A stretch of 64,000 bases of DNA, from positions 309,210 to 373,209 of the forward strand of contig NJBN01000001.1 in NCBI GenBank assembly GCA_005223185.1, in the 5' to 3' direction. Under the pieces are notes generated by a model, which was not told where the DNA came from, searched no databases, and saw only the letters and a program-made list of their open reading frames with translations. Position 1 is the first letter of the stretch. Each line of letters starts with the position of its first letter. The DNA comes from a candidate division LCP-89 bacterium B3_LCP. GTDB lineage: Bacteria; Electryoneota; B3-LCP. Of the stretch, positions 828-19,774 are shown in pieces. A program made the translations under genes and the position numbers.

Positions 828-844
828 TTTTTGGAATAGAGAAG

Positions 845-880
845 ATGAAAAAGCCGGATCTTAAGTCCGGCTTTTTTTAG
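845..880. terminator. bidirectional rho-independent terminator
   Basis: Hairpin agccgga-tcttaag-tccggct preceded by an A-run and followed by TTTTTTT. It lies between convergent genes ending at 827 (+) and 877 (-). Confidence 0.6.
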
Positions 881-2811
881 TCGAGCTGTCTTAACAGGTC
901 TATGGCTGGTTTATAATCAGGGTATAAAAGAAGGGTTTTCTCAAGTTGTTCTTTCGTTTCGTCTAAGTATCCTAATTTCCCCAGAGCTAAGGCGAAGTTG
1001 TAGTGATATAGAGCCTGGTAAGGGTCCAGTTCGCAGGCAGCGTTGAAGTGGGCTGCGGCTCTCTCCGTTTCACCTGCTTGGGCTCCTTGCAGTCCGATTC
1101 TAAAATAGCATTGAGCTAAGTTGATTACCGCGTCAGTGTAGTCGGGTTTCAATTCGAGAGCACGTTCGTAATGAATTTTCGCTTCGCCCCACTTATTCCG
1201 ATCAGAGAGGATTGCGCCGATGTTGTTGTGGGTTCTTGCATCTAATGGGTTGATTTCCAGCTCTTTCCTGTACAGGCTGTCGGCTTCTTCAAGATCACCC
1301 ATCCTGTAGGCGATAACCCCTAAATTGAGGTGAACCTGCCAATAGGTTGAGTCAGCGTTGAGTGCAGAATGGTATGATTTCCGGGCTTTATCCAAATTGC
1401 CCTTTTCCAGGTGAGCGTTCCCCAAACTGAAATAAGAATGTGCGGAGTTCTCTCTTTCGATGCCTGCAAAGTTTGAGTTCACCAACAGGAAAGCCAGTAT
1501 CAAGGCGATCAACGTTTTTCCCTTTTGCGCGCTCCAGAAAGTAGGTTTCGCCTGGAAAAGGAAGGCAACTACTATCGCACTGAATATGAGCAGAAAAGGT
1601 ATCATGGGGAGGCGAAAGCGTGCGGTTACAAAGAACGCTATAACGCTCAAGCCGTAAACGGGCAGGATCGCCAAAAACCACCCCGGCAATATTTTCTGGC
1701 GCCAGGTTATAATCCATCCAACCAGTCCCAACGGACCTATCACCCAGAACCCCAACATCCTCAATAGCGGCATGATCGGGGTTTCACCTTTAAAGAAATA
1801 GAGATCCCGGTTGTTGCTTACCTCCAGTCCATTCCCGAACGCGTACACCTTTTTAGCCATTAATTTCATCCAGGAAACGGGATTATCCCGTATGAATTCC
1901 AGCCCTTTCTTATAATAAAAACTGCTCACTTCTGAGGGCTTCAGAATGCGACCTTCCGTTTCGTAGGCTAATCTCGAAGTCGCGGGTACATCCCAGTTTG
2001 ATCCCAAACCGGGGAAACTGGAATGCAGACCGTCAGCTTCAACGTTATTACCAATATAAAAGTTGATTCCTCCCTGGTAGGCAACTGGAACAAAGTCACC
2101 GCCCTTTTGGACATTGTGCCAGGTTACCGGGATAATGGGAGTTAGACAGCCAACTATCAATATTAGAGAGCGCAACGCTCTTTTTTGCCACCTAAAATAT
2201 ATGCGTGTGAAAAATATGCCATCAAGCATAAATATCGGCAGGAGAATCAGGGCACTGGGTCTGGTGATTGCAGCCAGACCCAAAATCAAGCCCGGGAAAA
2301 ATGACCACCAAGAATTCATACTTCTTCTGGATAAAGCGTAAGTTAAACAAGCTGATAAAAACAGAAGCAGAAAGAGAGTTTCGACCAATAGTTCCCCGTC
2401 AAAATAGATAAGCAGGCCGTAGGCCGCAACGCCTAAACTGGACAAAACACAAATAGTTCTACTAAGCTTAAGCGACCGCGCCAGTATGTAGGTTATAACG
2501 GCGGTTCCGGTGCCCACGAATATTTGCACTATTCTGGCTGTTAGGTAACTACCTTCGCTGAAGTAGTAAACCAGAGCCAGAAAATAAGGATAAAGGGGTG
2601 CGCGAAAGAATACTCCCTCATGTCCAATTCCCTGGCGGATGATTTCCCGAGCCCAGGCATCGTGGTATTCCGCATCGATTATGGGCGCATCGAAGAAGAC
2701 TGTACTTTTTAGCTGGAGGATATATACCATTCGCAGCAAGAAGGCGATACCGGTAATTATGGTAATGTCTATCCAGATTGGTTTCTTGTCTGATTGAGAA
2801 TTGGGCATCAA
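877..2811 (-). CDS. GT-C fold glycosyltransferase (PMT_2/ArnT-like, GT39/GT83-like) with C-terminal TPR repeats
   Basis: The N-terminal ~480 aa are polytopic membrane (many hydrophobic helices). The DAEYHDAWAREI motif near the N-terminus is typical of PMT_2/ArnT-type transferases that use polyprenyl-phosphate sugars. The C-terminal ~170 aa carry repeated TPR-like signatures (AHSYFSLGNAHLEKGNLDKA, YWQVHLNLGVIAY, THNNIGAIL, YTDAVINLAQCY, ALYHYNFALALGKLG). Confidence 0.7.
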   Translation of the reverse strand: MMPNSQSDKKPIWIDITIITGIAFLLRMVYILQLKSTVFFDAPIIDAEYHDAWAREIIRQGIGHEGVFFRAPLYPYFLALVYYFSEGSYLTARIVQIFVGTGTAVITYILARSLKLSRTICVLSSLGVAAYGLLIYFDGELLVETLFLLLFLSACLTYALSRRSMNSWWSFFPGLILGLAAITRPSALILLPIFMLDGIFFTRIYFRWQKRALRSLILIVGCLTPIIPVTWHNVQKGGDFVPVAYQGGINFYIGNNVEADGLHSSFPGLGSNWDVPATSRLAYETEGRILKPSEVSSFYYKKGLEFIRDNPVSWMKLMAKKVYAFGNGLEVSNNRDLYFFKGETPIMPLLRMLGFWVIGPLGLVGWIITWRQKILPGWFLAILPVYGLSVIAFFVTARFRLPMIPFLLIFSAIVVAFLFQAKPTFWSAQKGKTLIALILAFLLVNSNFAGIERENSAHSYFSLGNAHLEKGNLDKARKSYHSALNADSTYWQVHLNLGVIAYRMGDLEEADSLYRKELEINPLDARTHNNIGAILSDRNKWGEAKIHYERALELKPDYTDAVINLAQCYFRIGLQGAQAGETERAAAHFNAACELDPYQALYHYNFALALGKLGYLDETKEQLEKTLLLYPDYKPAIDLLRQLD

Positions 2812-3723
2812 TCAACCTATTAATATTTTCTTTATCAACGGGATTACATCGGTTATGCGTTCCGGTTGGTTCTCATCAATGATTTCGGAATCGAAATTCC
2901 AGATGAAGGGAACCGAATTGCGGGTGTGCGTTTTTACACTTGAATCTTCGATATTTCCGTGATCTGAAGTGATTATTATCTTGATACCCTCCTCGTTTGC
3001 AAGCGTCAATGTTGAATGAATGAAATCGCTAAGTTGCCTAATTAGGGATAGAATAGCAGATTTATCACCCTTATGTCCCAGGATGTCGGTCATAAAATGC
3101 TCGTAAAGAGTGAAATGTTCCTTTTTTGCTATTCCAACAAGAATATCCGCGGCTTCTTGTGCTGAAAGAATTGGTATATCTCCCCATTTATCACCTAAGC
3201 TTCGGTTGGTAAAATCATGGTAAAGAGCTTCTCTTTTCTCGATCTGTTCTACGGATCGGAATGGCTGTCCGGAGGCTTTAAAAGCATGGCTGGTTACGGA
3301 CAGTCTGCTGAATGGAGTTATGTCTTCCGGGTGGCGGTAGGCATTGGCGAAAGTGGCATTATAACCGTTTCTGGTCAGGTGCACGAAGATACTCTCATTT
3401 TTGAGTAATTCAATCAACTTACGGCTGGGAAAGCCCTGAAGATGTTTACCTACAAGTTTCGGTGCATTGATCCCGGTCAGCAGCGCTGTCTGTCCAGTGG
3501 CGCTCTGGGGTAAGCCTTCTACCCCCAGACAGGCGTCGATGGGGATGTTTGACAAACCGTTGAAGTCAGGTTTGTGGTTTTTGGCAGGCCAGATATCAGG
3601 ATGGTGAAGCAGAGGATTAAGCCGGGGATCATCTTCGCCTATTCCTAATCCATCTATAAAAATCAACAGTATTTTGCGGGAAGCTTTCAGCATATTTAAT
3701 CTGTGTAAATAGTGTGATTTCAT
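2812..3723 (-). CDS. alkaline-phosphatase-superfamily metalloenzyme (ApgM/iPGM-like or phosphodiesterase-like)
   Basis: The N-terminal LLIFIDGLGIG and the C-terminal IIITSDHGN metal-binding motif are characteristic of the alkaline phosphatase core fold (cofactor-independent mutases, phosphodiesterases). It abuts the GT-C gene with no gap. Confidence 0.5.
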   Translation of the reverse strand: MKSHYLHRLNMLKASRKILLIFIDGLGIGEDDPRLNPLLHHPDIWPAKNHKPDFNGLSNIPIDACLGVEGLPQSATGQTALLTGINAPKLVGKHLQGFPSRKLIELLKNESIFVHLTRNGYNATFANAYRHPEDITPFSRLSVTSHAFKASGQPFRSVEQIEKREALYHDFTNRSLGDKWGDIPILSAQEAADILVGIAKKEHFTLYEHFMTDILGHKGDKSAILSLIRQLSDFIHSTLTLANEEGIKIIITSDHGNIEDSSVKTHTRNSVPFIWNFDSEIIDENQPERITDVIPLIKKILIG

Positions 3724-3909
3724 AAAATAATGCTTAATTACTGGAATTCCAAGTCAGTTTTTTCCTGAACTTTACCGTATGGCAGAATTTCAACATGAAA
3801 CTGTCAGTATCCCGCTCACCTTAAGCGTTTTCAGCACGATGCCGGGAAATTAGGCTTGCATAAAGCCCAAGGATTCGGTATATTAAGCAGATATTAATAT
3901 GTTTTAACC

Positions 3910-5037
3910 GTGATTAATTTGATAGAAACACTGCAGATTATAAGCCTGTCGGTTACTTTGATATTCATGCTATTTCTCTGGCTGGGACTTCGTAGAGAGA
4001 GAATCATATCGTCAAGCTGGCGTCCTACAGTTACTGTATTGGTGGCTGCGCGAAATGAAGAGAGGGATCTTCCCGGTTGTTTGGAAAGTCTAAATAAGCA
4101 GGATTACCCGAAAGATTTATGCGAGTTCATCATTATCGATGATGGATCGACGGACGCGACGGGCGAAATAGCTAAGGAATGGTCTGATAAGGATGCACGG
4201 TTCAGAGTGATTCGGCTTGAAGATGAACAGTCCAGATCGTTAGGTCCCAAGAAGAGAGCGCTTACTAAAGGCTTCGATGCGAGTTCCGGGGATGTTATTA
4301 TCTGCACCGATGCCGATAGTCATTTCGGTCTGGGGTGGTTATCGGGAATGATCGCCTGTTTCGATGAAAAAACCACTGCTGTTTGTGGTATGGTTAAGTT
4401 CGATCCATCCCGCAGTTTCTGGGGGAAATTGGCTGCTTTTGAAGGCTTGGTTGACAGCATATTGAATGCAGCAGTTATCGGCATCGGAGGCGCTCTGAGC
4501 TGTTTCGGAGCAAATTTCGCTTACAGGCGGAAGGTATTTAATGATGCGGGCGGATTTGACGTTGGGTCCGGTTCGCTTTCAGGTGATGACGATCTGCTCC
4601 TGCAGAGGATGCGTTCATCAGGAGGGAAGATTCGTTTCTGTGCCAATTCGCAATCAGTGGTAATGACTCAAAGTCCCCAGGATAGAAGATCATATTGGAA
4701 CCGCAAGCGGAGGCATCTATCTGCAGGGAAAAGATACGCATTTCACTGGATAATGCTGGCACTGGTGGTTTTCATAGCCTGTCTTACCACGGATTTACTG
4801 GCAGTTTTATGGTTTGCTGATTATCACTCGAATCTAAATTTTGCATATATGTGGGGGTTTTTCAGTCTTGCACTGTTCATCATATTTATAAGAGGAAAGA
4901 TGATAATGCTGCAGGAAGGTTACTGGATCTGGTCCTTGACAATATCTTTAGTCTTCCCTCTTTACTTTGTCGTTATTCAGCCACTTACCTTGCTTCCCGC
5001 ACCATCATGGAAAGGGCGTTCATCTAAGCATGAATGA
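3910..5037 (+). CDS. family 2 glycosyltransferase, membrane-bound (N-terminal TM plus C-terminal TM bundle)
   Basis: GT2 signature VTVLVAARNEERDLPGCLESL...FIIIDDGSTD and a DxD-like TDAD. A C-terminal polytopic region follows. GTG start at 3910 precedes the first TM helix. Confidence 0.8.
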   Translation: MINLIETLQIISLSVTLIFMLFLWLGLRRERIISSSWRPTVTVLVAARNEERDLPGCLESLNKQDYPKDLCEFIIIDDGSTDATGEIAKEWSDKDARFRVIRLEDEQSRSLGPKKRALTKGFDASSGDVIICTDADSHFGLGWLSGMIACFDEKTTAVCGMVKFDPSRSFWGKLAAFEGLVDSILNAAVIGIGGALSCFGANFAYRRKVFNDAGGFDVGSGSLSGDDDLLLQRMRSSGGKIRFCANSQSVVMTQSPQDRRSYWNRKRRHLSAGKRYAFHWIMLALVVFIACLTTDLLAVLWFADYHSNLNFAYMWGFFSLALFIIFIRGKMIMLQEGYWIWSLTISLVFPLYFVVIQPLTLLPAPSWKGRSSKHE

Positions 5038-6079
5038 TAATACGGTTACACAGGAGCGAGCGACTGATTTTTCACCAGCATTAACGCGAATTGGTGAAAA
5101 AAAAGGTAGATCAAAAGCAGTCCGCAAGCGGATAATCTTCTGGACGAAACTGCTCTTGACGCTTTCAGTGCTAATCCTTTTGATAATAACCATCAAGCCG
5201 CGTGAGATAACCAGCGCCTTCGAAGGGAGCCGCTTTCCTCTGCTGTTAATAAGTTTAGGGCTGGTTATTCCCAATATAGGTCTGCGAGCTATACAGTGGG
5301 GTTATCTTTTGAGGATGGTGAAACCGGAGGTGAAAGTCAGGGAGATACTTAATTCATTATTGGTAGGATCTACCTTTGCGGTCGTCACACCGGGACAATT
5401 AGGGGAATTCGGTCGAGCTTTCTTCATTTCCGGTCGCCCGCGCCTGGAATTGATCGGCATTTCCTTCATCGATAAGATGTACAGTCTGCTGCCTATTATT
5501 TTAAGCGGAAGTTTGGGGTTGCTATTTATGCCGGGGCTGGTTTTTGGCAGTAATTCATATATCTTCATCTCATCGGCGGTTCTTGTGGCGATACTGTGGT
5601 TGATACTTATCTCCATACTGCTGTCGCCGCGCTGGATTCGCGATCTTCTTTATGCGGTAAATGTCATGCTACCCTATCGCGACAAAGTGAAAGTGCTGCT
5701 GAGTGGTCTGGATCCCATCAAAATCAAGCAATCACTCGTTCTGACCGGATTGAGCAGCACTCATTACCTGCTCTATATTTTTCAGTTTTACCTGCTCATA
5801 ATATCCTTTCAACATGTGGGATTATTGGACATGTATCGCGCGGTTTCAGCGATTATCTTTGTCAAGGCTGCGCTGCCAATTTCCATAGGAGGGTTGGGAG
5901 TAGGAGAGACGGCATCAGTAGGTTTTTTGAGGGTTTTCGACGTTCAATTTGCTGCCGCTTTCAATAGTTCCGTTATTCTATTTACCATCAATATCTTATT
6001 TCCTGCTCTAGTGGGAGTTATAATTCTCCTGAAGCTGCGCTTATCTCCAGAGAACGGAAATGGTAAACCAGATGCTTGA
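5030..6079 (+). CDS. flippase-like polytopic membrane protein (UPF0104 / lysyl-PG synthase TM-domain-like)
   Basis: About 8 predicted TM helices, no soluble domain, and a position immediately after a GT2. The most plausible start is ATG at 5030, where ATGAATGA overlaps the stop of the upstream GT2 (translational coupling). The ORF track extends it to 4967. Confidence 0.5.
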   Translation: MNDNTVTQERATDFSPALTRIGEKKGRSKAVRKRIIFWTKLLLTLSVLILLIITIKPREITSAFEGSRFPLLLISLGLVIPNIGLRAIQWGYLLRMVKPEVKVREILNSLLVGSTFAVVTPGQLGEFGRAFFISGRPRLELIGISFIDKMYSLLPIILSGSLGLLFMPGLVFGSNSYIFISSAVLVAILWLILISILLSPRWIRDLLYAVNVMLPYRDKVKVLLSGLDPIKIKQSLVLTGLSSTHYLLYIFQFYLLIISFQHVGLLDMYRAVSAIIFVKAALPISIGGLGVGETASVGFLRVFDVQFAAAFNSSVILFTINILFPALVGVIILLKLRLSPENGNGKPDA

Positions 6080-7259
6080 ACCGTTATGGACAGTATTGTT
6101 AGCTGCTACAGGTCTGATTTACTTTGCCTTTCTGGAAGTGGTCAGAAGGGGATTGGGAAAACTCCGTGATGCTGAAGCTTATCGGGATAAAGCGGATGAG
6201 TATTTAGACGTCAGCGTTATAATTCCCTGCCGAAATGAAGCTGAACACATCGGTCATGCTTTAAATGACCTGATCGAACAAAATTATCCTGCTGATAAAA
6301 TGCAGATAATCGTGGTGAATGATCGTTCTACCGACGACACCGGAAAAGAAGTCAGTGATTATCTGTCCAGGATGCCACAACTTGAATTAGTAGAAATCAA
6401 CTTGTGTCCGGATGGAATCTCCCCTAAGCAGAACGCCCTTGTTGCGGGAATGCAAAAAGCAACCGGTGACATTATAATCACCACTGATGGCGACTGCCGT
6501 TTTCAAAAGGGCTGGGTGAGTGCCTTAGTGAACCAATTTAAAGGTGAAACCGGCGTGGTAACCGGATTAACTGTTTTCGACCGTGGACGTTCTGAACCTT
6601 TCTGGCAGAGGATGCAGCAACTTGATTATCTCTCTCATTCATTTTTCGCTGCCGGCGCCATCGGCGCGGGAATGGCGTTCAACTGTAATGGCAGCAACTT
6701 AGCGCTGCGACGTGAAGTATTCGATGAAGTGGGTGGCTACGGTGATCTTAAAGATGTGTCTGTAAGTGATGATACCGCTTTACTGCAGAGGATCAAACGG
6801 GATACAAAATGGGACATAGCTTTCAGCACGGATCCACAAAACAGAGTACATTCCTGGCCAGAAGAGACGCCTGCTGAAGTATTTAATCAACGGTTGCGCT
6901 GGGCTGCTGGAGGGGTGTCAAGCAATCCCAGAGTGCTGATGTTTGAACTGATTACTTTCATCTTTTTCATGGCGCTGTTCCTGTCTCCCTGGTTATGGCT
7001 GGGAGGGTTGATTTCGGGAAGCTGGGTGGTTTTATTCATTCTGAAGCTATTGCAGGAGTTGCGCGTTATGAGGTTGGGATGGAATATATTCAAAATAAAA
7101 CCGGATATGATATCCTTTTTGGCGATGGAATTGGTTCACATTCCGGCGATCTTGCTATTCAGTATCCTGGGAAATCTGTGGGGCTTCCGGTGGAAAGGAC
7201 AACACTACAAAGGGATTGGAAAAAAGGAAGACGCTCCATCGATGGTATCTGAACGATGA
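6060..7259 (+). CDS. family 2 glycosyltransferase, processive type (QxxRW motif), membrane-bound
   Basis: VSVIIPCRNEAEHIGHAL...IIVVNDRSTDDTG, then TDGD, then a Q-R-L-R-W motif (NQRLRWAAGG), then C-terminal TM helices. Confidence 0.8.
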   Translation: MVNQMLEPLWTVLLAATGLIYFAFLEVVRRGLGKLRDAEAYRDKADEYLDVSVIIPCRNEAEHIGHALNDLIEQNYPADKMQIIVVNDRSTDDTGKEVSDYLSRMPQLELVEINLCPDGISPKQNALVAGMQKATGDIIITTDGDCRFQKGWVSALVNQFKGETGVVTGLTVFDRGRSEPFWQRMQQLDYLSHSFFAAGAIGAGMAFNCNGSNLALRREVFDEVGGYGDLKDVSVSDDTALLQRIKRDTKWDIAFSTDPQNRVHSWPEETPAEVFNQRLRWAAGGVSSNPRVLMFELITFIFFMALFLSPWLWLGGLISGSWVVLFILKLLQELRVMRLGWNIFKIKPDMISFLAMELVHIPAILLFSILGNLWGFRWKGQHYKGIGKKEDAPSMVSER

Positions 7260-8245
7260 TAAGACTCCTGCCCACAGCAAAGATGCTGCAGGTTGCCCGC
7301 TGTCTGTATAAGAACCGGAAGAACGGTGCAGGGATCTATCCTTTTTACGCTTCTCTGAAGGTGACCGATCTGTGCGGCTTTCGATGTTCCTTTTGCAATG
7401 TCTGGCGCAATCCCGCGCCGGACCTGGATACTGAAGGAATTATTAAGGTGCTGCGCAATTTGGGGGATTCTTCCATCGTGTTAACGTCTATAGAAGGCGG
7501 CGAACCACTTCTTCGTAAGGATATCGAAATCATCTTAAAAGAAGCATCACAGCAGCCCTATTACCTTCTATTCACCACCAGCGTCAGGAACTTGCTCGAT
7601 TATCCCTTAGAGACGTACAGTAAATGGATCGATCTATTTCACGTATCAATCGATGAGGGACACGAAAACTTAGAACTGTTCGACATCTTGCCAGAGATTG
7701 TGGATCTACCCTGGATCGTCTGCGTTCAGACTGTCGTGCGGGATTGTGATATGGGATCGATGGCTGAAAAGGTAAAAACCTGTGCTGACAATGGCGCCAA
7801 GATACTAATCATGCCAGCGGTAGAATTGGACGATGCCAAACACAGCTTTCCCGACCCTGCCCGGTTCAGCCGTGAAGTCGCAGATTTGAAGAAACGGTTT
7901 CCCCGTACCGTACTCACGCCACGGCGTTACCTGGATGCAATAAATGGTGAATCGCATTGTTCTGCTGCGTCGATTATAATAGACAGCGATGGAGGTCTGT
8001 TTTATCCCTGTAGAACATTAAATGAGAAGCCGGTCAACCTGACCCAAACCGATCTGATGGGTTATCTGGAATCGCAAGATGCATCAGAGCGCCGTTCCGT
8101 GATGAAAACCTGCGACCGACTCTGCGGCTGGTATCAGTATTTTGCCATAGATTTCTTCACTCAGCCGGGGGAGGTTCTGGAATCGCTGGGACCGTATTGG
8201 GGAGATCTGATCGGTTGGCGTTCAAAGAAAGCGTCTCACGTCTGA
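7256..8245 (+). CDS. radical SAM protein with C-terminal SPASM/twitch-like Cys motifs
   Basis: CxxxCxxC (LCGFRCSFCNVW) at about residue 40, a SAM-binding GGEPLL motif, and C-terminal CSAASIIIDSDGGLFYPC ... CDRLCGW. Its start overlaps the upstream stop as ATGA. Confidence 0.75.
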   Translation: MIRLLPTAKMLQVARCLYKNRKNGAGIYPFYASLKVTDLCGFRCSFCNVWRNPAPDLDTEGIIKVLRNLGDSSIVLTSIEGGEPLLRKDIEIILKEASQQPYYLLFTTSVRNLLDYPLETYSKWIDLFHVSIDEGHENLELFDILPEIVDLPWIVCVQTVVRDCDMGSMAEKVKTCADNGAKILIMPAVELDDAKHSFPDPARFSREVADLKKRFPRTVLTPRRYLDAINGESHCSAASIIIDSDGGLFYPCRTLNEKPVNLTQTDLMGYLESQDASERRSVMKTCDRLCGWYQYFAIDFFTQPGEVLESLGPYWGDLIGWRSKKASHV

Positions 8246-8250
8246 AAATT

Positions 8251-9348
8251 ATGGATAGCTTAGTAGTAGTTATTGGTATTATTTATATTTTCATAGGACT
8301 GATTATATGGAAGGGTTTGGCAATCAGTCCCAAGAAAAGGGGAAAAGAAACGGTAGATTTCGCTTCTTTGATATTATGCGCCAGAAATGAAGAGAAGTGT
8401 TTAGAAGCCTGTCTCGAATCGGTTGAAAAGCTGGATGCTGATCCGGACTGCTTTGAGGTAATTTTAGTGAATGATGCATCTGATGACGCAACCGGCTCAA
8501 TAATGGATCAGTTTGCAGCCAGGTGTGATTACAAAGTGGAGGTAATACATCTTTCACCATTGCGAAGGGATGAACCAGGTGGTAAATGGCGCCCTTTAAA
8601 AGAGGGAGTAAAAGCTGCTTCGGGTGAAGTTATACTCATCACGGATGCCGATGCGATACTTCCGGTGAAATGGGTAGAAGAACACTTGACTATTCTGCAC
8701 GGAAGCGATATTTCAGCAGGTTATGCAATCAACCTCTATGGGAATGTATTTAACCGGATTTTGGGGTTGGATTGGCTGTTCATTCAAAGCGCTGGCGGAT
8801 CGCTGTCCAACTGGGGACGACCTCAATCGGTATTGGGGAAGAATCTGGGGTTTCGCCGTAATGCTTACGAAGATGTTGGTGGTTTGGAGGGGATCGGTTT
8901 CTCCTTGACTGAAGATCAGAGTTTGATGAGAACAGTAGTTGACAACGGCGGTAAAGTACAGTTCTCATCATCCCCTGATATGGCTGTCAGCGTTTGTAGT
9001 ACGCTGGGGGTTGGTGATTATTTAGAAAAGAAGCAACGCTGGGCAACAGGATTTTCTCTTTTAAGAAAGGAAGGAAAAGCCACGGTTTTAGCCGCGCAAT
9101 TACGAAATATTGCCATAATTATAGGTTTATTTACGTGTTTGCCAATTGCTCTATCCATCTGGATTATTACTTCTTTCGTAAACTACCTGGTATTGCGCAG
9201 GATTTTGACAAAATTGGGTGACATGATAGACATAAAGTTATTTATGCTGTGGGAAATTTTCAATACTCTGACGTCTCCTTTGCAGATAGCTCTTCACTTT
9301 GCCAGTCCTAAAGTCGAATGGAAAAAACGGCGACTGTCAAATCGCTGA
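8251..9348 (+). CDS. family 2 glycosyltransferase, membrane-bound (QRW motif)
   Basis: LILCARNEEKCLEACLESV...VILVNDASDDATG, then TDADA, then KKQRWATGF, then C-terminal TM helices. Start chosen at the ATG before the N-terminal TM helix. The ORF track allows 8197, which would overlap the preceding gene by 49 nt. Confidence 0.75.
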   Translation: MDSLVVVIGIIYIFIGLIIWKGLAISPKKRGKETVDFASLILCARNEEKCLEACLESVEKLDADPDCFEVILVNDASDDATGSIMDQFAARCDYKVEVIHLSPLRRDEPGGKWRPLKEGVKAASGEVILITDADAILPVKWVEEHLTILHGSDISAGYAINLYGNVFNRILGLDWLFIQSAGGSLSNWGRPQSVLGKNLGFRRNAYEDVGGLEGIGFSLTEDQSLMRTVVDNGGKVQFSSSPDMAVSVCSTLGVGDYLEKKQRWATGFSLLRKEGKATVLAAQLRNIAIIIGLFTCLPIALSIWIITSFVNYLVLRRILTKLGDMIDIKLFMLWEIFNTLTSPLQIALHFASPKVEWKKRRLSNR

Positions 9349-9379
9349 CTTAATACGCAATAAATGAATCTGAATATAT

Positions 9380-10348
9380 ATGCCCCTGGTCTGTAATTAT
9401 TATTTGACCTATCGCTGCAATGCTCGCTGCACATTCTGCGATTTATGGCAGCACGAAAACAGGGATTTGGCTGATGCTTCTGATGTACTGGATAATCTAA
9501 AAACACTTCGGGCAGCAGGTGTGCGCATCGTAGATTTCACCGGTGGAGAGCCCTTGATGCATCCAGAACTGCCCATGTTTTTACGAGTCGCCCGAAAACA
9601 TGGACTGATGACGACAGTTACCACCAACGGAATCCTCTACCCCAAGTTGGCTGCAGAACTGCACGGTCTCATAAGCATTCTTCATATTTCCATTGACAGC
9701 ATGGATCCCATCGTACACGATAAGCTACGTGGGATTTCCTGTTATGATTTGGCAATCAAATCGGTGGAGACAGCGCTGTCCTCAGGTGAAAAACCCGATT
9801 TGCTCTTCACCGCAGGCAGGGATAACTATAAGGATGTAGTACCACTATCCGGGTACGCCCGCAGTAAAAATTTAGTGCTGATAGTCAATCCCATGTTTGA
9901 GGTAAATGGTGGTGAAGGGGCTTTAGGGCACGATGAGTTAGTGGAGTTAGAGAGACTTTGCCGCAAACCCAATGTGTATTTAAACGGCGGCGTTATAAGG
10001 ATCATGTTGGAAGGTGGCAACAACACGTTGAAACCGCGCTGCCGAGCCGTCTCATCGAGTATAGTGATATCGCCGGATAACGAGTTACTCCTGCCCTGTT
10101 TTCACCGGGCACAGGGTGCAGTATCGATAAATGGAAGTTTGAATCGTGCTCTGGCGAGTGCAGAGCGAATGAAATGGTTGCATCTGCAGGGGCGGGAAGA
10201 TATATGCCGCAATTGTACCATTAACTGTTACTTAGCACCTTCCCTTCCGTACCGCCTGGACCGGTACTTCGCTTCCTTCATCCCCTGGGGGGTTAAATAT
10301 CTATATTACCGTAACTTCCGCCTGAAACCAGCCGAAAGCAACGCATGA
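9380..10348 (+). CDS. radical SAM protein (paralog of 7256-8245) with SPASM/twitch-like C-terminus
   Basis: CxxxCxxC (YRCNARCTFCDLW) at about residue 10, GGEPLM, and C-terminal CRAVSSSIVISPDNELLLPC ... CRNCTINC. It has the same architecture as the other radical SAM gene. Confidence 0.75.
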   Translation: MPLVCNYYLTYRCNARCTFCDLWQHENRDLADASDVLDNLKTLRAAGVRIVDFTGGEPLMHPELPMFLRVARKHGLMTTVTTNGILYPKLAAELHGLISILHISIDSMDPIVHDKLRGISCYDLAIKSVETALSSGEKPDLLFTAGRDNYKDVVPLSGYARSKNLVLIVNPMFEVNGGEGALGHDELVELERLCRKPNVYLNGGVIRIMLEGGNNTLKPRCRAVSSSIVISPDNELLLPCFHRAQGAVSINGSLNRALASAERMKWLHLQGREDICRNCTINCYLAPSLPYRLDRYFASFIPWGVKYLYYRNFRLKPAESNA

Positions 10349-11925
10349 CACCGGTTGATCTTCCTCCTGAAATTTTACCCTTAGTGGTGATGTATCCTGA
10401 AGTACATTATCGCTTTCGCGCTCTTCCCATCAGTAGGTATTTTATCAGGCAGCCTGAAATCATCGCTGATGCTCCCCACAGAATAGAACCAGGTCAGCCC
10501 CTGCCGGTACTGTTAGTGATAAAAGATGCTGATAGATTCCCGGTCCTCCTGCAAGGAGTCAATCTGGATATTCAGGGGAAGGATACCTACTACACTCACC
10601 ATGTGAATTTCGGTCAGGAAATGGTTTCCACGCACTGGTGGCATCACATAGAATGGGTTGATCTTCCCGACGAAGCGCCCTGCGAATGGACAATCACCCC
10701 GACCTGGCGTATTCAGCTTCGGGGTAAATATCGTGCGGTAGGAACGGATAACTTAGCAGGTCTATCGCATAAGCCGCTGCAGGTTTTTCAGGCAAGCGAT
10801 CCGTTGCCTCGCAAAGAAGGCTGGGTTTTCGGGGATTTTCATGTTCATACTGCCTATACTGAAGATCAGATAGAGTTCGGAGCGCCGCTTCCGGCATACC
10901 CGGCTTTGGGAAAAGCCATGGGGTTATCCTTCGTATTCGCGTCAGATCATTCTTACGATTTAGATGACGTGCCGGGTTCTTTCACCGAAGCTGATCCCAA
11001 TCTGATCAGGTTTAAACAGATGCAGAGAGAAATCGTACAACTGAATGCTGAGAAGAGCGGAGAATTTGTATTCATCCCCGGTTACGAACTGAGCGCGGCT
11101 AATTCAAGGGGCAAGAACGTTCATCTTTTGTTAGTTAATCAGAAGGATTTTCTGCCGGGTTCTGGAGATTCGGCAGAACGCTGGCTGCACAGGAAGGCAG
11201 AATTAACCATTTCCGAAGCGCTGGCGCAGATGAAGAAGGAAACTCTGGCTGTGGCTGCTCATCCAAAAATGAAAGCGCCATTATTGGAGAGGCTGCTATT
11301 AGGCAGGGGTCATTGGGGGAAGTCTGATTTGGAACATGAATCACTGTTCGGATTGCAAGTCTGGAACGGCGGCAGCGGTAAGGATTTTCAGAGAGGACTG
11401 AAGATCTGGACAAAAGGACTACTGGAAGGTAAGCGATGGAAACTGTTAGCAGGAAGTGACGCGCACGGAAATTTCAACCGGTATAGACAGGTCGGTATCC
11501 CCATGCTCTACCTGACTGAATCCGATCGACAGTTGTTCGGAAAAGTCCGCACCGGAATACGAATCAGGGAAAGGTTAGATTTAGCCGGAATCATGTCCGC
11601 TCTACGGGAAGACCTAAGTTTAGTAACGGATGGCCCTTTCGCTGAGTTATCCCTTAAGAGAATAAATAACAACTCAATTAGCGTCAATATTGCCGCATCG
11701 AGCAGCTCAGAATTCGGGGAACTGGAAGTGGTTAAACTGTTTTGGGGAGCTGAAGGAGAACCGCAGGAGCGGATTCACCTTTGTCATGAAGATGTAGGTG
11801 GATATGATTTTAGTATAGAAACGGAGATTCCCAAACCGAAGGGCTACGTACGTATAGAGGTACAAACCAACAAAGGATGCCTCTGTTTAACCAACCCGGA
11901 GTTTATCGAGGTTCAGTCACAGTAA
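10345..11925 (+). CDS. PHP-domain metal-dependent phosphoesterase with C-terminal extension
   Basis: FGDFHVHTAYTED ... FASDHSYD ... AAHP ... GSDAHG match the His/Asp metal-ligand pattern of the PHP (polymerase/histidinol phosphatase) fold. The start overlaps the previous stop as ATGA. Confidence 0.6.
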   Translation: MTPVDLPPEILPLVVMYPEVHYRFRALPISRYFIRQPEIIADAPHRIEPGQPLPVLLVIKDADRFPVLLQGVNLDIQGKDTYYTHHVNFGQEMVSTHWWHHIEWVDLPDEAPCEWTITPTWRIQLRGKYRAVGTDNLAGLSHKPLQVFQASDPLPRKEGWVFGDFHVHTAYTEDQIEFGAPLPAYPALGKAMGLSFVFASDHSYDLDDVPGSFTEADPNLIRFKQMQREIVQLNAEKSGEFVFIPGYELSAANSRGKNVHLLLVNQKDFLPGSGDSAERWLHRKAELTISEALAQMKKETLAVAAHPKMKAPLLERLLLGRGHWGKSDLEHESLFGLQVWNGGSGKDFQRGLKIWTKGLLEGKRWKLLAGSDAHGNFNRYRQVGIPMLYLTESDRQLFGKVRTGIRIRERLDLAGIMSALREDLSLVTDGPFAELSLKRINNNSISVNIAASSSSEFGELEVVKLFWGAEGEPQERIHLCHEDVGGYDFSIETEIPKPKGYVRIEVQTNKGCLCLTNPEFIEVQSQ

Positions 11926-12421
11926 CTTTACTCTGCACCACCCATGCACCCCGGTAACCTCGTTTGACCGCCACCTGACGCAGCTTGTTCGCTTCGGTGC
12001 GCGTTAAGCAATCGCCAATACGGATCTTATAAATTGGTGAATCGAATATCAAGTAAACATTTTGGTCGAATTCGATTAAAGCTTTCTCTTCCACCGAACG
12101 TGCTTCGAATTCAACGTTTGTAGTGAAGAGTTGCACGCGGTATCCCGAAACTTCTACGGTTTCAAATGATACAGCAGTATCCCTCTCGCTTTCATTTATA
12201 GAGGCAGACGTCGAAGGTTTTGACTGGAGTTCCGATGGTGGCAGTGTGATGGTTTCATCATCTGGAAACTCAAGCGGATCGAAGCTCTCATCCTGAGGGA
12301 CGCGATTTATATCCTGTGGTGGAGATTCTTCCAATGTGGGTGGTGGAGTTGGTGCGCATCCGGCTTGCAGTAAGATTACTGCTAAGATGAGGAGGAGAGA
12401 TATTGAGTTTATTGCTTTCAT
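11903..12421 (-). CDS. SPOR-domain lipoprotein (peptidoglycan-binding)
   Basis: Signal peptide with lipobox LLQAGC, a Pro/Ser-rich linker, and a C-terminal SPOR-like fold (YRVQLFTT...EANKLRQVAVKRGYRGAWVV). Confidence 0.6.
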   Translation of the reverse strand: MKAINSISLLLILAVILLQAGCAPTPPPTLEESPPQDINRVPQDESFDPLEFPDDETITLPPSELQSKPSTSASINESERDTAVSFETVEVSGYRVQLFTTNVEFEARSVEEKALIEFDQNVYLIFDSPIYKIRIGDCLTRTEANKLRQVAVKRGYRGAWVVQSKVTVTEPR

Positions 12422-12450
12422 TTCAACTCTGGAATTTCTTTAAACCTTAT

Positions 12451-13233
12451 CTATATAACTTCATAAGCTTCTTTTAGTATCCATCCTCGCTTGCCGTCAG
12501 CCAGCCTGATCTCAGACCATTGGGCAACTTCCCTGAGAATTTCCATCTTTACACCTTCATGCAGGGCGAACAGCTTGGTAGCCTCAGCTTCTGGTGCGCT
12601 GCGGATTTCAACGTCCTTTATCATCACAATTGCTTCGGTGAGATTGTCCTGGTAGATTTTCTGTTGAACGAAGAAGGCCCCTGAAAGGACGAACACGGCG
12701 CCGAAAAATAGGAATCCTGTCAGCAATATTTTTCGCCAGCGAATTCTACGCACAGAATGTAATGCGATGAGACATACAGCTACCAGCCATTCAGTTAATA
12801 TGAACAATATTGACCATTCCTTCACCGATAACATAGAAGCAGCTTTGTTGAATAGAGTAATTAAGAAGAAGCGCGGCATCGGCTCAATGCGGTCGAAAAT
12901 GCGCATGTTGGCTAATTTCAGGTTAACGTTCAAGTCCGGATCGTTTCCTAAGTAGCGGCGAGCTCTTTCATAGTTCAAGATGGTATGCCCGTATTCTCCC
13001 TGCTTGTAATAACAGTTACCTAAGTTATAGAGGATTTCACCGTTGATGAATCCTCCAGCGATGATATCCTCATAAACAGTAGCGGCGGTATTGTAGTCAT
13101 TTTCACGATAGCTCTCTTCAGCTTCCGCATAGGCTATGTCCAAGCCGTGGGTTTGCGCTTTCAGGCTGAGAATGAAGATACACAAAAAGAAAAACAGGGA
13201 TAGAATGACGGCTAATCCTCTTCGCACAATCAC
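12451..13233 (-). CDS. batE: BatE-like protein (TPR plus TM plus C-terminal bacterial SH3 domain)
   Basis: Two TPR units (YNTAATVYEDI..., YNLGNCYYKQGEYGHTILNYERA), two TM helices, and a C-terminal SH3b-like segment (KRGWILKEAYEVI). It is the last gene of the Bat operon. Confidence 0.65.
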   Translation of the reverse strand: MIVRRGLAVILSLFFFLCIFILSLKAQTHGLDIAYAEAEESYRENDYNTAATVYEDIIAGGFINGEILYNLGNCYYKQGEYGHTILNYERARRYLGNDPDLNVNLKLANMRIFDRIEPMPRFFLITLFNKAASMLSVKEWSILFILTEWLVAVCLIALHSVRRIRWRKILLTGFLFFGAVFVLSGAFFVQQKIYQDNLTEAIVMIKDVEIRSAPEAEATKLFALHEGVKMEILREVAQWSEIRLADGKRGWILKEAYEVI

Positions 13234-15140
13234 AGTTTGTTCCCCCAGGTTTTTTCAATGCGATCCAAAACTATGTCAACCCGTTTCAATAATCTTCTTA
13301 GAACATCTTGATCTGTAACTTCCATAGCGAAACGCGCTGCATTGCATTCGTTGAAAATATCGTTTAGTGTCGTCATGATATCTTCCGGGACGTCGCGCTT
13401 TTTCAATTCTTTTAGCACATCATCTTCCATCAGCCCCGAAGCAGGAATAGCGAGTTTAGTGCTGAGGAAGTTCAGCAAAGTGTTGTGGATAGCTCCATAG
13501 GTTGCAGAGGCATTTGTGTCAGACGTTCTCTTCACCAGGGATTTTAACTTATCTTTCGATTTATGATAAATCCTGTGCTGTTGGCGCCGAACCTGAAGTG
13601 TGGGAGCGCCCAGCAAGCGTGCAGCCCACCATAAAATAACAATAATAAGCGGTGGAAGGGCAACGCCAACCCAATAAGCAAACGGCAGGTTTTGAGCAGA
13701 CCCGACCGCATACAAACGACCCGGAGTTTTCAGGTAACGTACATCCTTTGCCAGGAGTTTCACTTCTTCGCGGGATATTCCTGAAGGAGAGCCGTAATCA
13801 CCATCACCTGAACGCGTAACGGAGATTTCAAAGCCTCTTTCTTTTATAGTCTGGTAAGTTCCAGAGGACGGATTGAAGTAAGCAAAATTAATGGAGGGGA
13901 TAGCGCTTTTCCCCGGAATACGCGGTATAAGGACGTATTCGAAAGTCTTGGATCCGAAGATTTTGGCGCCAGATTTATTTATCTTAATAGATTCCTTCGG
14001 TTCGTATGCTTCGAAATCTGGTGGTACTGAAAAATCGGGCTGCGGTAAAAGCTTGATGTTTCCGGTGCCATTGAAGCGAACTGACATGGTGATCGCTTCA
14101 TTGGTGCTGACCTCGTCTCGGTCAATTTTGACTTCCATACTAAAATTACCGACGGCTCCCGAAAAATTACGGGGTTTACCCTCATCCGGTAGAGGTAGAA
14201 CAGTCAGTTTCAAGGGGTCGGTTTGGATGAAACGCTCTTCGGTTCTGTAACGGCTGAAAGGGCTGTCGAACATCATATCGAAGGGATCCTGGCGCCTTCT
14301 TGATTGCCGCTGCACCTGTACCTGGCAGGTGACTTCTAATGGATCGATGATCATTTCGCCCGGATGCGTGGAAAAGAGCGCTACTCGTCTGATTACTGCT
14401 TTTTTATAGTGTCTCCCCCCGATAACTTCGTCCTGAACAGCGGGTTGTTTAGACGAATCAAACTCTTCAGTCCAGAAACCCGGTGTAGCGGGGAGATGGC
14501 TGATTTCGTAAGCATTTACCGAGACACGTGTGTAAATAATATATGTCAGGATTACCTGTTCATTCTGGAAGATACGGTTCTTATCGGCTGTAACTCTGAC
14601 GAACAGTTCCGATGATTCCTTATCTGTGGTTTGGGGTAGAGGAGTGGTTCTTTTCGCGCTTCCTGGTGTTGTGGTTACAGTTCGACTTCCTACCTGTAGG
14701 AAAATCGGTTCTGTACTATAGATCTTCCCTTTATGAGTCAACCGTACGCTTTCGATTGTCAGCGTACCAGTACGCTTTGGTTTAAGGACGTATGACCAGG
14801 ACTTGATCAGAGAATAGTTGGTGTTGATAATCTGAAAGGTACTCGATTCGTTAGGACCGGAGATTATGCGGAAATCAGACAGTTCCGGCAGTTTGGGGTC
14901 GGATACCCTGGATACTGAGCCTTCCACCTGAAGCGTGAGTGTGAAGGTATCGGTGACGTCCAGCGCAGTACGATCGACAACAGCGGTAAAGGTAATGTCC
15001 GCGGCACAAGTTATACCTACCAGCAGAGATAGAAGGACAGCGACGGAGATGAATATCATCAGACGTTTATCAACTGTCCGATATGAAACAGATCTGCTAT
15101 TAATTGATTCTATCATTAACTCTGTTGTTTTACTTACCAA
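13230..15140 (-). CDS. batD: BatD-like protein (signal peptide, C-terminal TM plus cytoplasmic tail)
   Basis: 636 aa, an operon position between BatC and BatE, an internal signal peptide (MIFISVAVLLSLLVGITCAA, possible start at about 15059) and a TM helix near residue 500. The 4-nt overlap with batE fits coupling. Confidence 0.65.
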   Translation of the reverse strand: MVSKTTELMIESINSRSVSYRTVDKRLMIFISVAVLLSLLVGITCAADITFTAVVDRTALDVTDTFTLTLQVEGSVSRVSDPKLPELSDFRIISGPNESSTFQIINTNYSLIKSWSYVLKPKRTGTLTIESVRLTHKGKIYSTEPIFLQVGSRTVTTTPGSAKRTTPLPQTTDKESSELFVRVTADKNRIFQNEQVILTYIIYTRVSVNAYEISHLPATPGFWTEEFDSSKQPAVQDEVIGGRHYKKAVIRRVALFSTHPGEMIIDPLEVTCQVQVQRQSRRRQDPFDMMFDSPFSRYRTEERFIQTDPLKLTVLPLPDEGKPRNFSGAVGNFSMEVKIDRDEVSTNEAITMSVRFNGTGNIKLLPQPDFSVPPDFEAYEPKESIKINKSGAKIFGSKTFEYVLIPRIPGKSAIPSINFAYFNPSSGTYQTIKERGFEISVTRSGDGDYGSPSGISREEVKLLAKDVRYLKTPGRLYAVGSAQNLPFAYWVGVALPPLIIVILWWAARLLGAPTLQVRRQQHRIYHKSKDKLKSLVKRTSDTNASATYGAIHNTLLNFLSTKLAIPASGLMEDDVLKELKKRDVPEDIMTTLNDIFNECNAARFAMEVTDQDVLRRLLKRVDIVLDRIEKTWGNKL

Positions 15141-19763: not shown

Positions 19764-19774
19764 ATGAATTATCT

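Follow-up and report, generated by a model that had tools for sequence, protein, structure and literature searches.

Membrane glycosyltransferases and two predicted twitch-type radical SAM enzymes in an operon of a candidate division LCP-89 bacterium: a possible pathway for tailoring a lipid-linked sugar

The closest described systems to the locus analyzed here are two operons with a synthase-deacetylase-flippase layout, gpgSDF of Pseudomonas aeruginosa, which makes glucosamine (GlcN)-phosphatidylglycerol (PMC12713373), and hexSDF of Clostridioides difficile, which makes aminohexosyl-hexosyl-diradylglycerol (PMC10128005). In both operons the flippase role of the flippase-like third gene is predicted (PMC12713373, PMC10128005). 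Radical S-adenosylmethionine (SAM) chemistry on lipid head groups is represented by only two known cases, HpnJ and Cds, which are genetically defined and mechanistically untested (PMC13459092). In the HpnI/HpnK/HpnJ route to the cyclitol ether of bacteriohopanetetrol and in the route to calditol, where Cds is proposed to act between two glycosyltransferases (GTs), remodeling of a lipid-linked sugar is attributed to the radical SAM enzyme (PMC13459092, PMC9385802). Here we describe an operon that encodes three membrane glycosyltransferases of family 2 (GT2a, GT2b, and GT2c), a flippase-like protein, two radical SAM enzymes (rSAM1 and rSAM2), and a hydrolase of the PHP superfamily. It lies in a 64,000-nucleotide stretch of contig NJBN01000001.1 from the candidate division LCP-89 bacterium B3_LCP; this whole stretch is called the window, and positions refer to it unless another locus is named.

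Our tentative preference is that the operon makes a glycolipid or a short lipid-anchored glycan by a route resembling that of the synthase-deacetylase-flippase operons, with or without the deacetylase step, and that the radical SAM enzymes tailor the sugar. The observations on which this rests are the gene content, the motifs, their conservation, the fold class, and a gene neighborhood that is conserved across two domains of life. Seven genes on the + strand form one tight operon (3910-11925), in which neighbors overlap by 4 to 20 nucleotides (nt) or are separated by gaps of at most 32 nt:

3910..5037, + strand: GT2a, integral-membrane GT2, first gene of the operon (PF00535 94 bits, Glyco_transf_21 46.5 bits)
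5030..6079, + strand: flippase-like protein of the LPG_synthase_TM/MprF flippase-domain family, UPF0104 (PF03706 84.8 bits, cutoff 33.4)
6060..7259, + strand: GT2b, integral-membrane GT2 resembling ceramide glucosyltransferase and HpnI (PF00535 87.5 bits, Glyco_transf_21 68.3 bits)
7256..8245, + strand: rSAM1, predicted soluble twitch-type radical SAM enzyme of 329 amino acids, TKJ42337.1 (PF04055 39.4 bits)
7373..7396, + strand: C40-x3-C44-x2-C47 of rSAM1, ligands of the radical SAM [4Fe-4S] cluster (from the sequence; kept in 118/118 homologues)
7958..8125, + strand: predicted auxiliary-cluster cysteines C235, C252, C286, and C290 of rSAM1 (kept in 118/118 homologues)
8251..9348, + strand: GT2c, integral-membrane GT2 (PF00535 68.9 bits)
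9380..10348, + strand: rSAM2, predicted soluble twitch-type radical SAM enzyme of 322 amino acids, TKJ42339.1 (PF04055 82 bits)
9416..9439, + strand: C13-x3-C17-x2-C20 of rSAM2 (from the sequence; kept in 116/117 homologues)
10040..10228, + strand: C-terminal cysteines C221, C240, C276, and C279 of rSAM2 plus the subfamily-specific C283 (kept in 117/117 homologues)
10345..11925, + strand: PHP-superfamily (CehA/McbA-like) metallohydrolase of 526 amino acids, TKJ42340.1, CEE37_01270

The products of the rSAM1, rSAM2, and PHP-like genes are 100% identical to TKJ42337.1, TKJ42339.1, and TKJ42340.1. Two open reading frames (ORFs) begin with TTG and have a likelier ATG start downstream, namely, the flippase-like gene (TTG at 4967, ATG at 5030) and GT2c (TTG at 8197, ATG at 8251, 6 nt past the rSAM1 stop), while rSAM1 overlaps the end of GT2b, and the PHP-like gene the stop of rSAM2, by 4 nt each. 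The initial annotation had described, at 7256-10348, two consecutive modules of a membrane GT2 followed by a radical SAM enzyme of about 320 to 330 amino acids. This order indeed occurs twice (GT2b-rSAM1 and GT2c-rSAM2, with enzymes of 329 and 322 amino acids); the interval itself holds rSAM1, GT2c, and rSAM2, but the first of the two GT2 genes, GT2b, lies just upstream of it. The two-module unit was also too narrow, in that it overlooked the flippase-like gene, the PHP hydrolase, GT2a, and a deacetylase found in relatives of the cluster.

Like gpgSDF and hexSDF, the operon encodes putative lipid glycosyltransferases and a UPF0104/MprF-flippase-domain protein, the latter well above the PF03706 cutoff, and a GlcNAc (N-acetylglucosamine) deacetylase is present in the cluster's relatives, where it completes the synthase-deacetylase-flippase set; the logic of cytoplasmic synthesis followed by proposed flipping is also the same. 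However, there are three membrane GT2s here instead of one soluble GT4 or monogalactosyldiacylglycerol-synthase-like enzyme, none of them a GpgS/HexS-type synthase (NF053787 is not among the matches listed for the window GT2s), the window has no deacetylase, and scores fall far under the equivalog cutoffs. In addition, the known operons contain neither radical SAM enzymes, of which there are two here, nor a PHP hydrolase. The hopanoid (Hpn) system is similar in parts, with membrane GT2s (HpnI and HpnB), a deacetylase (HpnK), radical SAM enzymes (HpnH and HpnJ), and an LPG_synthase_TM-type protein (HpnL), as well as in logic, since GlcNAc is placed on a lipid and deacetylated before a radical SAM enzyme remodels the sugar. 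HpnL of hopanoid clusters belongs to the same LPG_synthase_TM/MprF-flippase-domain family, HpnJ is larger and carries a B12-binding-type domain, and HpnK differs in being a deacetylase of the YdjC family. We rejected an assignment to the Hpn system itself, given scores of 87.8 versus 310 bits for HpnI, 83.8 versus 379 for HpnB, and 30.8/39.4 versus 225 for HpnH; the window's annotated ORFs contain no gene for a squalene-hopene cyclase and no other hpn gene. The comparison with Cds of Sulfolobus acidocaldarius is one of logic, a lipid-linked hexose being remodeled, as proposed, between two GT steps, with the gene order GT-rSAM-GT (PMC9385802, PMC13459092), whereas Cds homologues have been reported from Crenarchaeota, Korarchaeota, and Marsarchaeota and from acidic sites and not from bacteria of the Fibrobacteres-Chlorobi-Bacteroidetes (FCB) group or sediment Thermoplasmata, and the acceptor of Cds is a glycerol dialkyl glycerol tetraether (GDGT). 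By analogy, the cluster appears to work like a synthase-deacetylase-flippase or Hpn head-group pathway while being a member of neither, because the synthase families differ, the deacetylase is absent here, and the scores lie far under the cutoffs.

All three GT2s pass the cutoffs of PF00535 and PF13506 (Glyco_transf_21), which we took as the mark of the membrane lipid-GT type. They carry the expected motifs (DAD at residue 134 in GT2a; DGD at 143 and QRLRW at 277 in GT2b; DAD at 150 and KKQRW at 278 in GT2c) and have predicted N- and C-terminal transmembrane helices, one and two, respectively, in the case of GT2b. GT2b aligns over nearly its full length with ceramide glucosyltransferase structures (E 2e-9), and the weak NCBIfam matches of the GT2s include HpnI, HpnB, CruG, and PgaC. 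On these profile and structure matches, the window GT2s resemble lipid glycosyltransferases. The PgaC match also bears on a different product, a secreted or surface glycan of the poly-N-acetylglucosamine or chitin-oligomer type, which would be made by a processive GT2 and a NodB/PgaB-like deacetylase, exported by a tetratricopeptide repeat (TPR) protein, and modified as a polymer by the radical SAM enzymes. Although PgaC/IcaA is the best NCBIfam match of GT2b, which has a QxxRW motif, the deacetylase best matches NodB, and a TPR membrane protein is encoded next door, we consider this improbable: PgaC scores 96 bits versus a cutoff of 422; a PgaA-like porin, PgaD, Wza, and an ABC exporter are absent; the deacetylase is predicted to be cytoplasmic; the MprF-type flippase-like protein points to a lipid cargo; and the archaeal versions described below use a GT4 and adjoin isoprenoid-lipid genes.

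The flippase-like protein has seven predicted transmembrane helices. The PHP-like protein has neither a transmembrane helix nor a signal peptide and is thus predicted to be cytoplasmic; it retains the metal motifs HVH166, DH201, E248, H306, and DAH372 and scores 72.4 bits with NCBIfam NF038032 (cutoff 80), and a sequence search of solved structures found no relative. Among the matches listed of its 655 homologues, all are in uncultured FCB lineages. Its gene adjoins rSAM2 homologues in L002, L005, L007 to L013, and L089 to L092 (L-numbers are labels of the compared loci), and either this gene or a short canonical PHP gene lies 3' of rSAM2 in many lineages.

The CxxxCxxC motif, the GGEPL motif (at residue 81 in rSAM1 and 55 in rSAM2), and the C-terminal cysteines noticed in the initial annotation are present in both radical SAM enzymes, which exceed the PF04055 cutoff of 29.5 bits and hence belong to the radical SAM superfamily. 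Neither has a predicted transmembrane helix or signal peptide, and both are thus predicted to be cytoplasmic. Their C-terminal cysteines are retained in every one of 118 rSAM1 and 117 rSAM2 homologues. A second alignment combined the two window proteins with 77 full-length representatives of diverse sequence (79 sequences in total), drawn by profile search of 1.84 billion representatives of clusters at 50% identity. In this alignment the three SAM-cluster cysteines occur in 79/79 sequences and the four shared C-terminal ones in 76 to 78 of 79 (C235/C221, C252/C240, C286/C276, and C290/C279 in rSAM1/rSAM2), and the fifth cysteine of rSAM2, C283, is present in 41/79. The initial annotation would have abandoned its radical-modification idea if these C-terminal cysteines were not conserved in homologues, or if the proteins were simple activating enzymes. 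The cysteines are conserved, as just described, and we rejected a glycyl-radical activase role for enzymes of 320 to 330 amino acids with a cysteine-rich C-terminal domain and no glycyl-radical enzyme encoded nearby.

The number and arrangement of these cysteines, four in rSAM1 and five in rSAM2, bear on a question raised by the initial annotation, that of a twitch or a SPASM domain. As SPASM we counted proteins with the seven-cysteine motif CX9-15GX4C...CX2CX5CX3C...C that also match the SPASM domain model, and as twitch those with a shortened SPASM-like C-terminal domain, in which cysteines stand before and after a beta-hairpin and again after the next helix and hold one [4Fe-4S] cluster. 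Both enzymes have the pattern C-x16/18-C ... C-x2/3-C, and neither has a Pfam SPASM domain match at E <= 0.01, nor does either match the NCBIfam twitch model NF033640. In AlphaFold2 models (predicted local distance difference test scores of 86 for rSAM1 and 91 for rSAM2), a beta-hairpin lies between the first two C-terminal cysteines, with strands 239-242 and 247-249 between C235 and C252 in rSAM1 and strands 227-230 and 235-238 between C221 and C240 in rSAM2. Because there are only four or five C-terminal cysteines and no SPASM model match, both enzymes very probably belong to the twitch structural class, with a single predicted auxiliary cluster, and not to the seven-cysteine SPASM class.

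Searches of the Protein Data Bank by sequence and with Foldseek returned generic SPASM/twitch neighbors and no close structure. The nearest solved folds of rSAM1 are SuiB, SkfB, PqqE, and BlsE (template modeling [TM] score of 0.57 to 0.67, normalized to the query), and that of rSAM2 is BlsE (7vob; TM score of 0.66, 19% identity), with peptide maturases scoring almost as well. The sugar-modifying enzymes BtrN, BlsE, NeoN, AprD4, and DesII share with rSAM1 and rSAM2 a similar length (about 250 to 330 amino acids for the twitch enzymes), an N-terminal CxxxCxxC, and a C-terminal domain, predicted to hold a cysteine-ligated auxiliary cluster in rSAM1 and rSAM2, with cysteines flanking a beta-hairpin. 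They differ in sequence (16 to 19% identity, TM score of about 0.6, NCBIfam BlsE 52 bits versus a cutoff of 400) and in setting, in that their substrates are soluble intermediates of antibiotic pathways in actinomycetes or Bacillus and not products of an operon of membrane GT2s and a flippase.

The peptide maturases among these neighbors raise the possibility of a pathway for ribosomally synthesized and post-translationally modified peptides (RiPPs) or a mycofactocin-like one, in which a precursor peptide would be cross-linked by SPASM/twitch enzymes before a GT2 adds sugar to it. SuiB, SkfB, CteB, and PqqE are indeed among the top structural neighbors, and the mycofactocin glycosyltransferase MftF is the best NCBIfam match of GT2a, but MftF scores 83.3 bits versus a cutoff of 280 and MftC 41.9 versus 265. 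Neither a small precursor gene nor a RiPP recognition element (RRE) domain, a peptidase, or an exporter is present; operon gaps of at most 32 nt are too short for a precursor gene, the ORFs in the 187-nt upstream spacer encode just 20 to 37 amino acids and lack supporting evidence, and no small ORF was seen to be conserved in related loci, where the tabulation covered ORFs of at least 80 amino acids. This possibility is thus very remote, and we rejected it for its sub-cutoff MftC and MftF scores and its missing precursor and RRE. A prokaryotic viperin (pVip) with a role in defense was likewise rejected (NCBIfam viperin 68.8 versus 180 bits); the PADLOC pVip matches of the radical SAM enzymes are confined to the initial ~110 positions of a 257-position profile.

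As for the reaction, the initial annotation had listed C-methylation among the possible modifications. We rejected it as unlikely because neither B12-binding nor HemN-type domains were found with Pfam and NCBIfam models; oxidation, epimerization, ring contraction, decarboxylation, and dehydration are all candidate reactions. The broader proposal of a radical modification coupled to glycosylation is still the most reasonable one, because both radical SAM families are repeatedly linked to glycosyltransferases. The best curated model for both enzymes, and for their archaeal and Bacteroidota relatives, is TIGR03961 ("PTO1314 family radical SAM protein"), whose alignment with rSAM2 covers nearly its full length, including the cysteine-rich C terminus; with 58.7 bits for rSAM1 and 87.7 for rSAM2 versus a cutoff of 306, neither is a member. 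Literature searches on "PTO1314" found nothing, and those on radical SAM with LPG_synthase_TM and on the rSAM1/rSAM2 family found no matching paper. To judge from these model scores, rSAM1 and rSAM2 stand outside every curated functional family, and both families are uncharacterized.

We then compared the radical SAM enzymes and the three GT2s pairwise and in trees with homologues, as the initial annotation had proposed, and confirmed that both sets are paralogous. BLASTP aligns rSAM1 and rSAM2 only over the N-terminal third (28% identity over 109 amino acids, E 1e-12), while the profile-profile alignment extends over 279 columns, including the cysteine-rich domain (probability 99.7%, E 2e-25). 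Identities between the GT2s are 34% (GT2a/GT2b), 28% (GT2a/GT2c), and 24% (GT2b/GT2c). The modules called duplicated are therefore paralogous, but not by a recent tandem duplication: with just 28% identity between the radical SAM enzymes and 24% between GT2b and GT2c, the paralogues are ancient, those of the radical SAM pair being full length. In a neighbor-joining tree, GT2a and GT2b fall into sister clades and GT2c falls among GT2s that adjoin rSAM2 homologues in other phyla; in several lineages, a- and b-type GT2s lie beside rSAM1 and c-type GT2s beside rSAM2. The pairing of GT2(a/b) with rSAM1 and of GT2(c) with rSAM2 is thus recurrent but, given the single-GT2 clusters and archaeal loci described below, not obligatory.

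Relatives of the cluster are widespread in bacteria. An rSAM2 profile run against one genome per species gave at least 568 confirmed matching stretches. The adjacency of a GT2 and a radical SAM gene is more than a chance arrangement, for it recurs independently at 25 or more loci spread over several phyla. The whole ten-gene arrangement, from the membrane TPR protein upstream of the operon to the SPOR lipoprotein downstream of it, recurs in a Calditrichaeota metagenome-assembled genome (MAG) and in unclassified FCB MAGs (L002/L003, L009, and L010), with partial versions in KSB1, Latescibacterota, and others. In nearly all cluster relatives, rSAM1 and GT2c are separated by a gene for a NodB-like Polysacc_deac_1 protein, e.g., L003 (8325-8876), L009 (8225-8845), L010 (8005-8658), L089, and L090; in all, a deacetylase was found in L003, L005, L008 to L010, L044, L087 to L093, L099, L113, L127, L137, L145, and L152. 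NodB is its best NCBIfam match, and as neither a signal peptide nor transmembrane helices are predicted, it is probably cytoplasmic. The assumption of one GT2 for each radical SAM enzyme did not hold up in these loci: both enzymes occur with a single GT2 in the order deacetylase-GT2-rSAM1-rSAM2 (L113/L137) or rSAM1-deacetylase-GT2-rSAM2-PHP (L005/L091/L092/L099), and the archaeal rSAM1 homologues described below pair with a GT4. L094, L096, and L135, which do not count among the 17 bacterial GT2/deacetylase loci of the metagenome scan below, have the two radical SAM genes side by side, and their available sequence contains neither a GT2 nor a deacetylase gene. In L013, a cluster of the same composition, the rSAM1 slot (5130-6140) holds a protein of a different radical SAM family, whose best match is a tungsten-cofactor oxidoreductase maturase-like model (138 bits), so that the two slots need not hold paralogues. 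The KSB1 loci L011 (164-1024) and L072 (7917-8711) encode a DUF3108 protein directly upstream of the GT2/rSAM2 genes.

Homologues of rSAM2 also stand alone in Cytophagales and Rhodothermales, including Hymenobacter, Pontibacter, Dyadobacter, and Marivirga. In many Cytophagales (L017, L023, L033, L036, L042, L052, L064, L068, L069, and L086) the start of the gene, at about position 10001 in most of these loci, lies 2 to 14 nt from the accD end on one side or the other, which suggests cotranscription with this fatty-acid synthesis gene (acetyl-CoA carboxylase beta subunit). The Cytophagales neighborhoods (accD, NqrF, Nth-like, and LbH protein genes) otherwise gave no clear functional clue; the NqrF-like gene lies 3' of the stand-alone homologue in Marivirga. 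In the rSAM2 family tree the stand-alone genes form one derived clade, around which the GT2/PHP-linked members are paraphyletic.

Both the adjacency and the stand-alone genes bear on the strongest rival explanation, namely, that the radical SAM enzymes act on soluble nucleotide-sugar donors or a small phosphorylated metabolite, that the adjoining GT2 transfers the resulting unusual sugar, and that the PHP hydrolase acts on an intermediate, either a sugar phosphate or a nucleotide. It would account for the repeated occurrence of GT2(a/b) beside rSAM1 and of GT2(c) beside rSAM2 and for the stand-alone rSAM2 of Cytophagales, which could feed a GT encoded elsewhere. Moreover, both enzymes are soluble, and BlsE (nucleoside-sugar), DesII (TDP-sugar), viperin (CTP), and MoaA (GTP) are among their closest solved folds. 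We nevertheless regard it as unlikely, as the cluster has no nucleotidyltransferase, nucleoside diphosphate-sugar dehydratase, or aminotransferase gene, and clusters with two radical SAM enzymes and one GT2 fit successive tailoring of one product at least equally well. NodB-like deacetylases, in addition, are known mainly from oligosaccharide and polymer substrates and from the lipid-linked substrate of ArnD, rather than from free nucleotide sugars, which also counts against it.

A metagenome scan with the rSAM1 profile confirmed 499 stretches and gave 80 loci for neighborhood analysis. Glycosyltransferase-cluster genes lie beside the radical SAM gene in 54/80, most of them also with a flippase-like gene nearby: 17 loci are of the bacterial GT2/deacetylase kind and 37 are archaeal, while 8 have a LigT/MutL-like context and 18 are uninformative. 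The archaeal block, found in sediment Thermoplasmata (within L110 to L166, e.g., L119, L146, and L157, and L167 at 5741-12348), consists of a divergent LPG_synthase_TM protein, the radical SAM enzyme, a GT4, a polytopic membrane protein of 619 amino acids (619 to 626 across the blocks) without a family match, and an MJ1255-like GT1/28, in the order "<flippase-like >rSAM >GT4 <619-aa TM protein <GT1/28". The best NCBIfam match of the GT4 is the GlcNAc-phosphatidylglycerol synthase model NF053787 (124 bits versus a cutoff of 480), and the GlcN-phosphatidylglycerol flippase model is the best or second-best NCBIfam match, under its cutoff, of the flippase-like protein. BLASTP found no similarity between the archaeal 619-amino-acid protein and the bacterial membrane TPR protein, and none between archaeal and bacterial flippase-like proteins, which have only their Pfam family in common. 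The link between the radical SAM family and glycosyltransferases thus spans two domains of life and different GT families, and the conserved unit is made up of a flippase-like protein, a GT, and one or more radical SAM enzymes, often with a deacetylase and a PHP hydrolase, and not of a repeated GT2 and radical SAM pair. Since the interdomain identity is high, with Thermoplasmata rSAM1 homologues at 46 to 49%, sequence comparison suggests horizontal transfer of the radical SAM gene between Thermoplasmata and bacteria.

Two side observations concern these metagenome loci. The loci with the LigT/MutL-like context (L098, L101 to L105, L107, and L112) have a gene of the LigT-like 2',5'-RNA-ligase family upstream and a PF13941 "MutL" (hydantoinase-like) gene plus two conserved unknown genes downstream. 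In the bacterial loci L145 and L152, an MJ1255-like GT1/28 gene of the same BLAST family as the archaeal one lies beside rSAM1, a deacetylase, a GT2, and a PHP-like gene; L145 also has a flippase-like gene, and rSAM2 was not detected in either locus.

In a named Thermoplasmata MAG the archaeal block adjoins, within a few kilobases, the genes for isopentenyl-phosphate kinase (IPK), IDI2, and geranylgeranyl diphosphate synthase (GGPPS). A further rival explanation is that the radical SAM enzymes modify the hydrocarbon part of a lipid, by C-C coupling, cyclization, or similar reactions as in Tes, Mss, and Grs, and not the sugar; the archaeal rSAM1 cluster lies only a few kilobases from IPK/IDI2/GGPPS, the rSAM2 homologue overlaps the end of accD in many Cytophagales, and GDGT-MAS is among the distant fold and sequence matches. 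However, known tail-modifying radical SAM enzymes are larger and possess additional clusters or domains for lipid binding (PMC13459092), a match to the Tes model reaches only 18 bits, and the strongest and most widespread neighbors are glycosyltransferases and a deacetylase, not enzymes of acyl or isoprenoid chains. A target in the lipid tail is therefore quite improbable, slightly more so than the polymer reading discussed above.

Returning to the lipid-linked glycan that we favor, the pathway would begin at the cytoplasmic membrane face, where the GT2s would transfer a hexose or N-acetylhexosamine to a membrane lipid and then extend it, and where, in most related clusters, the cytoplasmic NodB-like deacetylase would expose an amine. 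rSAM1 and rSAM2, each predicted to hold the SAM cluster and one fully cysteine-ligated auxiliary [4Fe-4S] cluster, might then each take a hydrogen from an unactivated sugar carbon, and this abstraction could drive a redox or rearrangement step (oxidation, epimerization, or contraction of the ring) comparable to those of BtrN, NeoN, Cds, or HpnJ. The PHP/CehA-like metallohydrolase may remove a phosphate or ester group, and the MprF-flippase-like protein would move the product, a tailored glycolipid or short lipid-anchored glycan, to the outer leaflet, after which the divergently encoded PMT-like GT-C/TPR protein may use or extend it. What we infer in this scheme is which lipid accepts the sugar, which sugar it is, what type of reaction each radical SAM enzyme carries out, and in which order the steps occur. 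A more specific version, possible but doubtful, is that rSAM1 and rSAM2 form a new twitch family that remodels the sugar head group while it is still lipid linked, turning, e.g., glucosamine into an epimerized, oxidized, or carbocyclic (cyclitol-like) head group; they would then be analogues of Cds and HpnJ from an unrelated family, exchanged between sediment Thermoplasmata and FCB bacteria.

Several observations weigh against the tailoring of a lipid-linked sugar. First, the window has no deacetylase, only 5 nt lying between rSAM1 (which ends at 8245) and GT2c (8251); the missing enzyme may be encoded at another locus of this genome, or the bacterium may follow a different pathway. Second, the flippase-like protein scores only 30.6 bits with TIGR00374, under the cutoff, and does not match the GlcN-phosphatidylglycerol flippase model. 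Third, about 65 Cytophagales/Rhodothermales genomes carry an rSAM2 homologue (41 to 47% identity) whose neighborhood lacks GT2, flippase, and PHP genes, so that the substrate of rSAM2 need not come from these GT2s, and the eight rSAM1-family loci with the LigT/MutL-like context lack a GT as well. Finally, the two radical SAM families are uncharacterized; their structural neighbors are only moderately similar (TM score of 0.57 to 0.68, normalized to the query) and include peptide- and nucleotide-modifying enzymes, and the best curated model, TIGR03961, is a hypothetical equivalog (Picrophilus torridus type) whose cutoff both enzymes miss by far.

If the lipid-linked reading is true, rSAM1 and rSAM2 would constitute a third, unrelated, and much more widespread family of head-group enzymes, and, being small, soluble, and easy to express, they could make head-group radical chemistry testable. 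It would also imply undescribed polar lipid head groups in abundant uncultured sediment lineages, namely, FCB bacteria (LCP-89, KSB1, Calditrichota, Latescibacterota, and Zixibacteria) and sediment Thermoplasmata, which bears on the interpretation of lipid biomarkers, and the archaeal-bacterial identity of 46 to 55% would suggest interdomain transfer of a membrane-tailoring function. Should the enzymes act on nucleotide sugars instead, they would still be new sugar-tailoring enzymes. In either case, rSAM1 and rSAM2 represent a widespread, uncharacterized, and experimentally tractable family, whose role as proposed here is coherent but unproven.

The genes flanking the operon are as follows:

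877..2811, - strand: PMT/ArnT-like polytopic membrane protein with C-terminal TPR (weak Pfam PMT and strong TPR matches)
2812..3723, - strand: cytoplasmic enzyme of the alkaline-phosphatase/"Metalloenzyme" superfamily, 303 amino acids (PF01676 47.1 bits)
11903..12421, - strand: SPOR-domain lipoprotein, convergent with the operon end (PF05036; lipobox-like N terminus)

The first two lie upstream of the operon and are transcribed divergently from it. The PMT-TPR protein has at least nine predicted transmembrane helices, its gene is coconserved in L002, L009, L010, and L087, and the L002 orthologue is annotated as PF13231 (PMT_2). The "Metalloenzyme" gene (2812-3723) is kept beside it in full clusters, and its product has no transmembrane helix or signal peptide and weak similarity to the phosphoglycerate mutase iPGM and alkaline phosphatase. 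The SPOR lipoprotein gene follows the PHP-like gene in L002, L009, L010, L089, and L090; this synteny is conserved, and whether the lipoprotein belongs to the system is uncertain. An Rfam search of window positions 1-13000 found no riboswitch or other Rfam element, and promoter and terminator scans performed no better than on shuffled sequence.

We regard the genes that follow on this side as unrelated housekeeping context. Directly downstream lies a Bat/MoxR aerotolerance-type operon (12451-20779, - strand) that encodes BatD, TPR/SH3 and VWA proteins, a DUF58 protein, and a MoxR AAA protein and that occupies the same position in L002, L009, and L010, which probably reflects synteny rather than function. 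Beyond it lie genes for large type IX secretion system cargo proteins with Por_Secre_tail sorting domains (21067-26097, 33187-35277, and 35423-37711). One of these cargo proteins is a C25 (gingipain-family) peptidase of 1676 amino acids, and a C25 peptidase is also encoded directly upstream of the L005 cluster.

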